Part shown: positions 39,527 through 42,013 of the stretch, piece by piece
Layout of the letters: every line of letters starts with the position of its first letter
Numbering within the stretch: the stretch's first letter is position 1
From: an uncultured Verrucomicrobiae bacterium
GTDB lineage: Bacteria; Verrucomicrobiota; Verrucomicrobiia; Limisphaerales; UBA11358
Reading direction: 5' to 3'
NCBI GenBank assembly: GCA_963786375.1
Contig: CAWAYP010000005.1
Coordinates: 80,036 to 144,035, forward strand
DNA length: 64,000 bases
Notes under the pieces: model-generated
Databases searched by the model: none
Told to the model about the DNA's origin: nothing
The model's input: only the letters and a program-made list of their open reading frames with translations
Translations under genes and position numbers: made by a program

Positions 39527-40510
39527 TCAGGCGCCCACCGCCGCGCGCGCTTCAGCCGCCAGCGGTGTGCTCAAGTAACGTTCGCCCGTCGAGCAGGCCA
39601 CCGTGACGATCAACTTGCCCTTGTTTTCAGGACGGTTGGCCACCTGAATGGCTGCCCAGACGTTTGCGCCGGATGAGATGCCGCACAAAATTCCCTCTTC
39701 CTTCGCCAGGCGGCGCGCCATTTCAAAGGCGTCGTCGTTGGAAACCTGGACACATTCGGTGATTAAGGAATTGCCTTTCGCATCTTTCAGATGGAGGTTG
39801 TTGGGTACAAAGCCCGCGCCCGTGCCTTGAATCTTGTGCGGGCCGGGCTTGAGCGGCTGGCCGGCCAGCGTCTGGGAAATGACCGGTGAATCCTTAGGTT
39901 CGACGGCGATGGCCTGGAACGACGGCTTGCGCGGTTTGATGACTTCCACGCAGCCGGTGATGGTGCCGCCCGTGCCGACCGCTGCCACCAGGATGTCCAC
40001 TTTGCCGTCCGTATCGGCCCAGATTTCCTCCGCCGTGGTCTTGCGATGAATTTCCACGTTTGCGGGATTGTTGAACTGCTGCGGAATCCACGAATTCGGC
40101 GTTTCGCTGGCCAATTGCTCGGCCTTGGCGATGGCGCCTTTCATGCCTTCGGCGCCGGGCGTCAAAACCAGCTTCGCGCCGAGCATCGCGAGCAACGTGC
40201 GGCGCTCGACCGACATGGTTTCGGGCATGGTCAGAATCAGCTTGTACCCCTTGGCCGCGCACACGAACGCCAGCGCGATGCCGGTGTTGCCGCTGGTCGG
40301 CTCGATAACGACGGTGTCCTTTTTGAGAACGCCGCGTTTTTCCGCGTCTTCAATCATGGACATGCCGATGCGGTCCTTGACGCTGCTGAGCGGGTTGAAA
40401 AATTCGCACTTGAGCAAAATGGTGGCGGGCAATCCGGCCGTGACCTTGTTCAACCTGACCAGCGGCGTGTGCCCGACGGTTTCGACGATGTTGTTATAGA
40501 TGCGTCCCAT
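39527..40510 (-). CDS. cysK: cysteine synthase A (O-acetylserine sulfhydrylase)
   Basis: ...[12 protein letters not shown]...[16 protein letters not shown]...[12 protein letters not shown] (PLP lysine motif). Confidence 0.93.
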
Positions 40511-40577
40511 AATTTTTTTTGACGGTTAAGTTAATGGCAATTTGTGCTGAACATGGCCGGCGGGCAAGCCCTTTTTT

Positions 40578-40672
40578 GTTGGAAAAAAATTCCAACGCCC
40601 AACATCCAACATTCAATGAAACGCAATTGGGCAGCCGGTTAATTCGGTGTTCGATGTTGAATGTTCGATGTT
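40578..40672 (-). terminator. composite inverted repeat (dispersed-repeat arms) plus T-run; candidate terminator for the upstream minus-strand RNA
   Basis: AACATCCAACATTCAA (40601-40616) against TTGAATGTTCGATGTT (40657-40672), 15/16 complementary. On the minus strand it is followed by GTTGGAATTTTTTTCCAAC (40578-40596). Confidence 0.4.
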
Positions 40673-40679
40673 TTTCCAC

Positions 40680-41552
40680 CCTGAAACATTAAGTCCCCGC
40701 CTGGCCTTTCGGCCAGACAGGGACAAATGGGGGATGGGAGTGCGCCAGGCTCTCTTTCCCGGACCGGCATTAGGCGCGCACCCTCGCGGGGGGCTGCCGG
40801 TTTCCCGACGCCATTCTCCACGGCAAGCGGAGTTTTCGGCCTCGTAGCAGGGCCGTCCAGCGCCTTGCGGCCGCTGAATTTCGAGTGAGGCTTTTCAGCT
40901 CGCTTCGGCTGATGGTTGCGCCACCGGCCTGCGAACCAGGTCAAGACACGCCTGCAGTTTATGTGTTCGCGTCTTGACCGTTTAGCGCCGGGTCAGCCGC
41001 CGCTTTTGGCGGCGCGTTCGCCCGGTGCCACGGGTCTCGCCTCTTCACTCTCAGGTTACTTTTTGCTCACAGTCCAGCGACGCCGTTTTTAACATCGCCA
41101 GCTTTTGGAAGTTCTTAACGCGACCTGCCCAGTCGGCGTGTCCTTCCCGGCGCCGGCGCTCCCTTTGTCCGCCTTTCGGCGGGTTTCATTGGGCGGTCTC
41201 ATTTTATTGAATCCGCCAGAGTCGCCCGCACCGTGCTGATGCACAGTAGCAACCGCATACCCTCTGGGTAACTGCGATTCACTCAGGCTCGAAACCGGCC
41301 TGAGCTACTTGACCCGGCTCGGAGCGGTTTCTAAGTCGCTCCTGGCCGCCAAGTCCCTCATTCGCATTTGGCATTAGCGAACATGCCAGAGGAACTGGTG
41401 AATGCTGCCTCCCGCCGAACCTTTCGATCCGGTTTCCGAGGGACCGGGCCAACCAGCCTAACCCGACCTTTCCCCAGTCGCCTGGGATTATCCTGGAAAC
41501 AAACAGAACAATCTTTCGACCGTTTCTGCCTGCTTCGTTCTTTCAATGAACT
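40680..41552 (-). ncRNA. candidate large structured RNA of unknown family (~0.85-1 kb)
   Basis: No convincing ORF. At least 10 perfect or near-perfect local helices. Three loops read GAAA on the minus strand, and three helices need G-U pairs that would be A-C mismatches on the plus strand. Promoter-like element upstream, terminator-like element downstream. Confidence 0.35.
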
Positions 41553-41558
41553 GCTGAA

Positions 41559-41586
41559 ATCATATCTCAATCCAGCGAACCGACAA
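41559..41586 (-). promoter_or_regulatory. putative promoter of the candidate RNA (minus strand TTGTCG-16 nt-TATGAT)
   Basis: -35 is the reverse complement of 41581-41586; -10 is the reverse complement of 41559-41564. Confidence 0.3.
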
Positions 41587-41593
41587 TGAATTG

Positions 41594-41771
41594 ATATCCA
41601 CAGCTTGTTCACCGGAATGCGCGTGTGAACAGCGTGTGAACAATGCAAAACAAGCCGGTAAATCAAGGGTTTTTCCACCCGGTTTCCAACGACTATCCAC
41701 AGTTTTTTAAGGACAAAGACGGGCCTGGTGAACAAGTTGTTCTGCTGAAACTGCGGGAATTTTTTTCCACT
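41594..41771. promoter_or_regulatory. cluster of DnaA-box-like 9-mers
   Basis: aTATCCACA (41594-41602) and cTATCCACA (41693-41701) are 8/9 to TTATCCACA. TTTTCCACC (41671), TTTTCCACT (41763) and inverted TGTGAACAA (41635) are 7/9. TGTGAACAG (41624) and GGTGAACAA (41727) are weaker. Confidence 0.35.
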
Positions 41772-41798
41772 CAAAGTCTCTGCTCATGCCGAAACAGG

Positions 41799-41822
41799 AG
41801 AGCCGCCCCAAAAGGCGGCTCT
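41799..41822 (-). terminator. hairpin downstream of the small basic ORF
   Basis: AGAGCCGCC / GGCGGCTCT 9-bp stem, 6-nt loop; only a weak U-tract on the minus strand. Confidence 0.4.
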
Positions 41823-41852
41823 GAATGGCGAAGGGATACCCCCGTCTTAAGT

Positions 41853-41966
41853 TTAAGAAGCAGCTTTCGCGGGTGCGGTTTTTTTAGCTTTGGCCGCCTG
41901 GTTTTTCCGTTTGAGATAGCGCGTTCGGCGTTGTCGTTTTTCTGCTTTGTTGAATTGTTTGCTCAT
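41853..41966 (-). CDS. 37-aa highly basic protein (below the ORF-track cutoff), hypothetical
   Basis: Hand translation gives MSKQFNKAEKRQRRTRYLKRKNQAAKAKKTAPAKAAS-stop; followed by a hairpin. It does not match L34, L36, S21 or Thx as I remember them. Confidence 0.4.
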   Translation of the reverse strand: MSKQFNKAEKRQRRTRYLKRKNQAAKAKKTAPAKAAS

Positions 41967-42013
41967 ACAAGTGTCTTTACATCGGCCACATATTCCGATT
42001 GTGTGTTGGCACT

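Follow-up and report, generated by a model that had tools for sequence, protein, structure and literature searches.

The MISL RNA locus upstream of cysK in an uncultured Verrucomicrobiae bacterium: conserved fold, transcription signals and a putative operator array

The stretch of DNA analysed here, referred to as the window, comprises 64,000 nucleotides from an uncultured Verrucomicrobiae bacterium (assembly GCA_963786375.1, contig CAWAYP010000005.1, positions 80,036 to 144,035). On its minus strand, a densely hairpinned stretch lies between the gene of a small basic protein, p37, and cysK, which encodes cysteine synthase A (Table 1). The original prediction, made from the letters alone, had described this stretch as a candidate large structured RNA of no family that could be named. 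It is a full-length, ordinary member of a curated family, MISL RNA (Rfam: RF03079), and hence a real RNA that is already known. The reading we favour, to which we give a probability of about 0.85, is that positions 41552..40684 of the minus strand (~869 nt) constitute a MISL RNA gene, the product of which is a large structured non-coding RNA that is chromosomal, present in one copy and specific to Verrucomicrobiota.

Family match and conserved fold

A cmscan search of the whole window against Rfam 15 placed the covariance model of RF03079 on 41493..40737 (minus strand) with 601.1 bits, more than twice the gathering score of 274.6 bits. The match (E = 4.5e-182 for the whole window and 1.1e-183 in a scan of the region) is untruncated, runs over model positions 1–751 of 751 and has a mean posterior accuracy of 0.97. 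No other Rfam family appeared at E up to 1 in a permissive scan of 40400–42000 that included the ribozyme, ROOL, GOLLD, HEARO and group II intron models. Rfam types RF03079 as “Gene; sRNA”. Presumably MISL is one of the 224 motifs of Weinberg et al. 2017, the main text of which does not mention it. Because the match to RF03079 is significant the RNA is not novel, and the claim of novelty falls to the very Rfam search that had been proposed as its check. As a discovery claim the locus is therefore minor: the family was already in Rfam and a routine cmscan names it.

Homologues were collected by scanning a 22-nt invariant block over one genome per species, which yielded at least 119 loci; MISL was present in all 119 loci listed (nhmmer), and the 18 diverse loci tested against RF03079 were all full length, with scores of 411–605 bits. 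Almost all of these loci are labelled Verrucomicrobiota (Limisphaerales/Pedosphaera, Opitutales, Verrucomicrobiales), and the closest copies among the matches listed come from metagenome-assembled genomes (MAGs) of the same phylum (L108, L031, L024, L007). Limisphaera, Opitutus, Pedosphaera and Horticoccus are cultured carriers of MISL. MISL is not mobile: there is a single copy in the window and one in each fetched locus, its surroundings are syntenic housekeeping genes, and no match was found in phage and plasmid collections.

The strand and the fold agree with this assignment. Positions 41552..40684 of the minus strand fold to −411 kcal/mol (z = −5.9 versus dinucleotide shuffles), compared with −358 kcal/mol (z = −3.1) for the plus strand of the same stretch. 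The unusual structuredness first noticed is borne out, and the proposed minus-strand transcript was the right choice. For covariation, the Rfam consensus structure was projected on an alignment of 106 full-length MISL copies. The window copy receives 172 consensus pairs, nine of them non-canonical. Across the alignment, 90.8% of the pair cells hold standard pairs, versus 34–42% when the 3′ partners are slid; both-sided changes occur at 132 of the 172 pairs, and none of 500 shuffles reached the observed pairing values. More than 100 positions are invariant, many of them unpaired, examples being AACCUGAGAG..AGAGGCGAGACCCGU, CCUGCUACGAGG, GAAUGGCGUCGGG and GCGCCUAAUG. The long-range helix of the Rfam model that closes the central domain is a special case, as its seven pairs are identical in 106/106 copies: absolute conservation, under which covariation is impossible.

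A covariation screen over an extended alignment, followed by pair counting, pointed to structure beyond the Rfam consensus. The pseudoknot between MISL 422–427 and a hairpin loop is 96.2% paired with all six pairs changed on both sides, and the two segments of the additional closing helix (MISL 259–270/337–348) are 95.8% and 81.8% paired, with both-sided changes at 7/9 pairs; the screen also gave a 4-bp helix extension (MISL 393–396/417–420). The pseudoknot and the added helices were tested on almost the same set of sequences from which they had been selected, which makes these statistics optimistic and contiguous stacking the stronger argument. For pairing of the 5′ leader with the 3′ tail the screen gave no convincing signal. 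Overall, covariation supports a multi-domain fold for MISL, in which several hairpins end in GNRA tetraloops, one long-range helix is invariant, at least one pseudoknot forms and many of the unpaired nucleotides do not vary.

How the helices listed in the original prediction relate to this fold can be seen from their positions. Six of the ten belong to the consensus (40939–40979, 40996–41013, 41169–41182, 41282–41304, 41321–41342 and 41370–41387), whereas three are alternative local pairings absent from it (40796–40809, 40737–45/40776–84 and 40896–40911); the tenth, 40693–40724, is the terminator hairpin, which the Rfam model does not cover. An argument from G-U pairs had led to the correct strand, although two of the three helices it drew on lie outside the conserved structure.

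Some copies are longer. Those at L052:4045-4937, L020:35-927 and L056:6014-6860 measure ~850–890 nt, the additional length being due to lineage-specific hairpins inserted into the 5′ third; the MISL core tolerates expansion segments.

Copies with Verrucomicrobia-type neighbours also occur in assemblies labelled as other phyla, namely two scaffolds of Stutzerimonas marianensis PS1 (L017 and L099; 858 and 323 nt). Further off-phylum labels are Bifidobacteriaceae MAGs (L026, L027, L029, L030, L112, L115), Klebsiella MAGs (L063, L069, L083), Acidoferrum/Acidiferrales (L084, L086, L110), an Acidobacteriaceae MAG (L096) and a Proteobacteria MAG (L117). The sequences in these records are probably mis-binned or contaminant contigs.

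Transcript ends and the upstream box array

The promoter proposed at 41559–41586 was correctly placed and is conserved in the homologues: −35 hexamers resembling TTGTCG and −10 hexamers resembling TATGAT stand at fixed spacing in essentially all homologous loci. A nearly invariant block, CAGUUCAUUGAAAGAAC, lies ~7 nt past the −10 and is followed by a variable hairpin; the leader block CAGTTCATTGAAAGAAC keeps a constant distance from the −10 in nearly all loci, and the conserved block CAGUUCAUUG is found near the predicted transcript start. RNAalifold recovered a 5′-terminal hairpin, GUUC-AUUGAAA-GAAC (41551..41537), the four pairs of which are unchanged in 32–35 of 35 sequences. It also gave a second leader helix (~41536..41496) with compensatory both-sided changes in up to 14 of the 35 sequences, in agreement with separate pair counts.

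At the other end, the linker CAUCCCCCAUUU, a GC-rich hairpin and a U-rich tract follow essentially every MISL copy listed, and the terminator stem covaries, 8/18 pairs being changed on both sides. The original prediction had pointed, just downstream, to an inverted repeat plus T-run at 40578–40672 and thereby mis-assigned the terminator; this is a separate dispersed repeat, and the terminator is the hairpin at 40724..40693. Of the limits then given to the stretch, 41552 coincides with the predicted start, whereas 40575 lies ~110 nt too far on the 3′ side.

With promoter and terminator conserved whatever the neighbouring genes, MISL is predicted to form a self-contained transcription unit of ~869 nt, in which the 5′-terminal hairpin and the terminator hairpin would make the RNA stable. 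The unit exceeds the Rfam model by 59 nt at the 5′ end and by ~53 nt at the 3′ end (~110 nt in total). Thus the model describes 757 of ~869 nt and is without the 5′ leader, the terminator, the pseudoknot and two covarying helices.

Table 1. Positions of the MISL RNA, its conserved elements and the neighbouring features in the window
Feature	Position	Strand	Basis or remarks
MISL transcription unit, predicted (~869 nt)	40684..41552	-	conserved promoter and terminator
MISL RNA, Rfam-covered part (757 nt)	40737..41493	-	cmscan, 601.1 bits; covariation in 106 homologues
Long-range helix of the Rfam model, GAG....GAGG (MISL 444–454)/CCUC.CUC (604–611)	40883..41050	-	closes the central domain
Pseudoknot, 6 bp, MISL 422–427 (41072..41067)/hairpin loop 537–542 (40957..40952)	40952..41072	-	not in Rfam consensus
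Extra closing helix, MISL 259–270/337–348	41146..41235	-	not in Rfam consensus; encloses two hairpins
Sigma-70-type promoter: −35 TTGTCG (41586..41581), 16-nt spacer, −10 TATGAT (41564..41559)	41559..41586	-	consensus scan
5′ leader (59 nt)	41494..41552	-	outside Rfam model
3′ tail (~53 nt)	40684..40736	-	outside Rfam model; linker, terminator hairpin and U-rich tract
Linker CAUCCCCCAUUU	40736..40725	-	conserved
Intrinsic terminator hairpin, GAAA loop	40724..40693	-	terminator scan; 14 pairs, 10 G-C
U-rich tract	40692..40684	-	after the terminator hairpin
Eight DnaA-box-like 9-mers, TT[A/G]T[T]CAC[C/A], both orientations	41594..41771		directly upstream of the −35
p37 gene (37 aa, Lys/Arg-rich)	41853..41966	-	neighbour outside the RNA
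Terminator-like hairpin of p37	41800-41822		
cysK (cysteine synthase A)	39527..40510	-	TIGR01139, 452 bits versus cutoff 351

Upstream of the −35, the region is occupied by an array of DnaA-box-like 9-mers, defined here as 9-mers with at most two substitutions from TTATNCACA and an intact CAC core. The array holds eight boxes in 178 nt, each with one or two substitutions from TTATNCACA, versus 2.1 boxes per kb in the window and a maximum of three per 180 nt elsewhere. Among 103 loci 418 boxes were counted (median of four per locus, three or more in 93 loci), with the consensus T-T-[A/G]-T-[T>G,C]-C-A-C-[C/A]; 80% of them begin with T, a position that the definition leaves free. The layout is fixed relative to the MISL model start, with a box at ~−245, one in the opposite orientation at ~−210 and tandem pairs at ~−150/−140 and ~−120/−110, and tandem pairs have an 11-nt period in 57/103 loci. 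From Limisphaerales to Opitutales the array is kept despite differing flanking protein genes. Two other kinds of palindrome, LexA-type (taken as GAAC-N4-GTTC or TGTTC-N4-GAACA) and CRP-type, are not the conserved arrangement. The boxes thus appear to form a conserved putative operator array, for which DnaA is our best guess as the binder, and the transcription of MISL is probably controlled by a protein that binds there.

A wider proposal, which we hold to be unlikely, is that MISL and the array together make up a replication-linked locus. In one version DnaA regulates MISL and so ties the RNA to the cell cycle; in the other, the array is an origin-type or DnaA-titrating site (comparable to oriC, datA or DARS) that includes the RNA gene as a working part. 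The box consensus fits the DnaA-box pattern TTATNCACA, the cluster is the densest in the 64 kb and its architecture is fixed across the phylum. The consensus, the use of both orientations and the tandem pairs at an 11-nt period resemble oriC, datA, DARS and DnaA-regulated promoters, DnaA binding being a prediction at the present locus. Unlike oriC-type clusters, however, the MISL array has no AT-rich unwinding element (the mean AT content upstream of the array is 0.42–0.54, and the richest stretch, at 0.58–0.61, is the promoter itself), no dnaA/dnaN neighbour and no origin-type switch in GC skew, the cumulative skew showing a broad maximum at 30–40 kb and no minimum, in a curve that is noisy over 64 kb and weak as evidence. 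DnaA domain-IV and Walker-A motifs were absent from the window and from every locus, and none of the annotated neighbour clusters (cysK, rho, typA, hrpB) is origin-linked. Most boxes deviate from TTATNCACA at one or two positions, and the 11-nt period also counts against DnaA, being that at which response regulators of the OmpR/PhoB type bind 7-nt direct repeats. If DnaA does bind the array, no large structured RNA before MISL would have had so direct a link to the replication initiator; MISL could then be coupled to replication or the cell cycle, or it could belong to a verrucomicrobial locus that titrates DnaA or resembles an origin.

The chromosomal position of MISL could be read in two records. 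It lies at 49.4% of the complete 5.92-Mb chromosome OY969416.1 (L013; about 2,924,261–2,925,028 of 5,922,632), a value that could have a meaning with respect to origin or terminus but is uninterpretable without knowledge of where the record begins. The same limit applies to a 4.64-Mb contig (L047), where it lies at 99.6%, 15–23 kb from the end.

Possible roles, p37 and comparison with other large RNAs

The nearest gene upstream in the window encodes p37, which shares the strand of MISL in 54 loci. Of the 102 loci in which the upstream flank is long enough, 43 have p37 directly ahead of MISL in this orientation. Its N-terminal consensus is MGKQ[SY]NKVEKRKRRKSY[LI]KRKK. Entropy is 1.2 at third codon positions versus 0.67 elsewhere, and p37 is, to judge from this pattern, clearly under purifying selection. 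No Pfam or NCBIfam family matched it, even at E up to 10; a large protein database gave only four matches, all “hypothetical”, and the gene is uncalled on the contig of NCBI assembly GCA_049686435.1 on which the cysK of the window is found. Its linkage makes p37 a candidate protein partner of MISL.

MISL would be expected to act in trans through its folded RNA, rather than by way of an ORF or as a leader of cysK, and it may be the core of a ribonucleoprotein or of an RNA-only assembly, as are OLE, ROOL and GOLLD. OLE assembles into a defined dimer and has small and basic proteins as binding partners; ROOL and GOLLD form cages, which are RNA-only multimeric assemblies, and are encoded in phages and prophages, often by tRNA islands (PMC12286853). 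OLE (Firmicutes, ~610 nt; a ribonucleoprotein with OapA, OapB, OapC and RpsU) and MISL are both large, conserved, lineage-restricted and chromosomal, with many invariant unpaired nucleotides, and the small basic proteins bound by OLE have a parallel in the conserved small basic protein gene that MISL often adjoins. The two RNAs come from different phyla and share no similarity in sequence or structure. OLE lies in an operon with a partner gene, whereas MISL has its own promoter and terminator. ROOL and GOLLD are of the same size class as MISL (~600–800+ nt) and have likewise ornate, pseudoknotted folds, but they are phage-borne, whereas MISL occurs once, in a syntenic setting of housekeeping genes, and gave no match in the phage and plasmid collections.

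Catalysis is less likely than such a ribonucleoprotein or assembly role. MISL would then be a ribozyme, with the invariant unpaired nucleotides and the pseudoknotted core as its active site, and we consider this improbable even though its size, its multi-domain fold, its pseudoknot and the large number of invariant positions noted above, over 100 and often unpaired, would suit an enzyme. Most bacterial RNAs of such size and complexity with a known function are catalytic or ribosomal, which speaks for a ribozyme as well. Against it, no ribozyme family matched at E up to 1 in 40400–42000, there is no candidate substrate, and no signature of self-cleavage or splicing, such as flanking exons or a mobile context, is present at the locus. 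The large orphan RNAs solved recently, OLE, ROOL and GOLLD, moreover proved to be assemblies and not enzymes (PMC12286853).

The reading of 41552..40684 as a self-contained MISL gene has to be set against several points that weigh in the other direction. Its predicted transcript start, the A at 41552, is placed by promoter spacing, and MISL transcription may read through into cysK. The linkage to p37 is limited to fewer than half of the loci counted above. In the literature searched, the Ribonanza paper alone names MISL, as a substrate for in vitro chemical mapping, and a function is nowhere on record. The most likely role, that of an assembly core, is tentative and is put forward by analogy with the three RNAs just compared. 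Nevertheless, MISL is among the few bacterial non-coding RNAs of such size, and almost nothing has been written on it. The interest that remains lies in its orphan status and in anatomical details, above all the conserved box array; together with the longer ends, the 5′ hairpin, the pseudoknot and the often adjacent p37 gene, these go beyond Rfam and offer a starting point for experiments.

The cysK side and coding potential

A cis-acting, riboswitch-like 5′ leader controlling cysK would be a natural guess from the map, as MISL and cysK share their orientation, 227 nt separate the end of MISL from the start of cysK, and cysK lies on the same strand within 400 nt downstream of MISL in 31 loci. 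We nevertheless regard such a leader as highly improbable. The conserved terminator between the two is strong, intrinsic and covarying; cysK is adjacent in only 31 of the 94 loci with enough flank and is not the next gene downstream in the remaining 63; and in Opitutaceae the neighbours are hrpB and typA instead. In addition, a separate repeat element intervenes between terminator and cysK, and the size of MISL is far above that of known riboswitches. With a conserved, unconditional terminator in between, and with cysK so often not the adjacent gene, MISL is not the cysK leader. More generally, the neighbours of MISL are housekeeping genes that vary by lineage (cysK, rho, typA, hrpB, rlmN, an M23 peptidase and a SecDF-head-like lipoprotein), and on these grounds they were set aside as uninformative about function.

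A decayed protein gene or a locus coding for a small protein has a negligible chance of being the explanation, for although the window has two overlapping ORFs here (101 and 138 aa), most homologues carry interruptions or frameshifts in them, a period-3 signal is lacking, and substitutions keep base pairs. In numbers, the aligned part of ORF 40639–40944 is stop-free in 38/103 homologues and differs in length by a non-multiple of three in 67/103; for ORF 41358–41774 the corresponding counts are 14/103 and 75/103. Variability across the MISL homologues has no 3-nt periodicity, the period-3 power being below the median of the spectrum. The earlier judgements that the stretch holds no convincing ORF, and that it is a large structured RNA and not a decayed gene, are thereby upheld, the second by the covariation as well.

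The segment between the MISL terminator and cysK contains an inverted heptad array (AACATYS, three to four times per arm) at 40584–40675. Because a second run of the same heptads is found at positions 72–95 of the window, the array is a dispersed repeat and not a terminator. Similar heptad runs are seen at the same place in many homologous loci. The sole promoter-like site before cysK, TTGCCA-17-AAAAAT at 40512–40540 (minus strand), ends 2 nt ahead of the ATG; transcription from this site would give a leaderless cysK mRNA. In eight loci (L019, L001, L009, L032, L047, L049, L050, L079) the heptads are replaced, within the first 90 nt past the terminator, by C-rich, G-poor short repeats of the CGTCCTCGT type, which could possibly serve as a Rho-loading site. 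The rho gene itself lies downstream of cysK in 31 loci.

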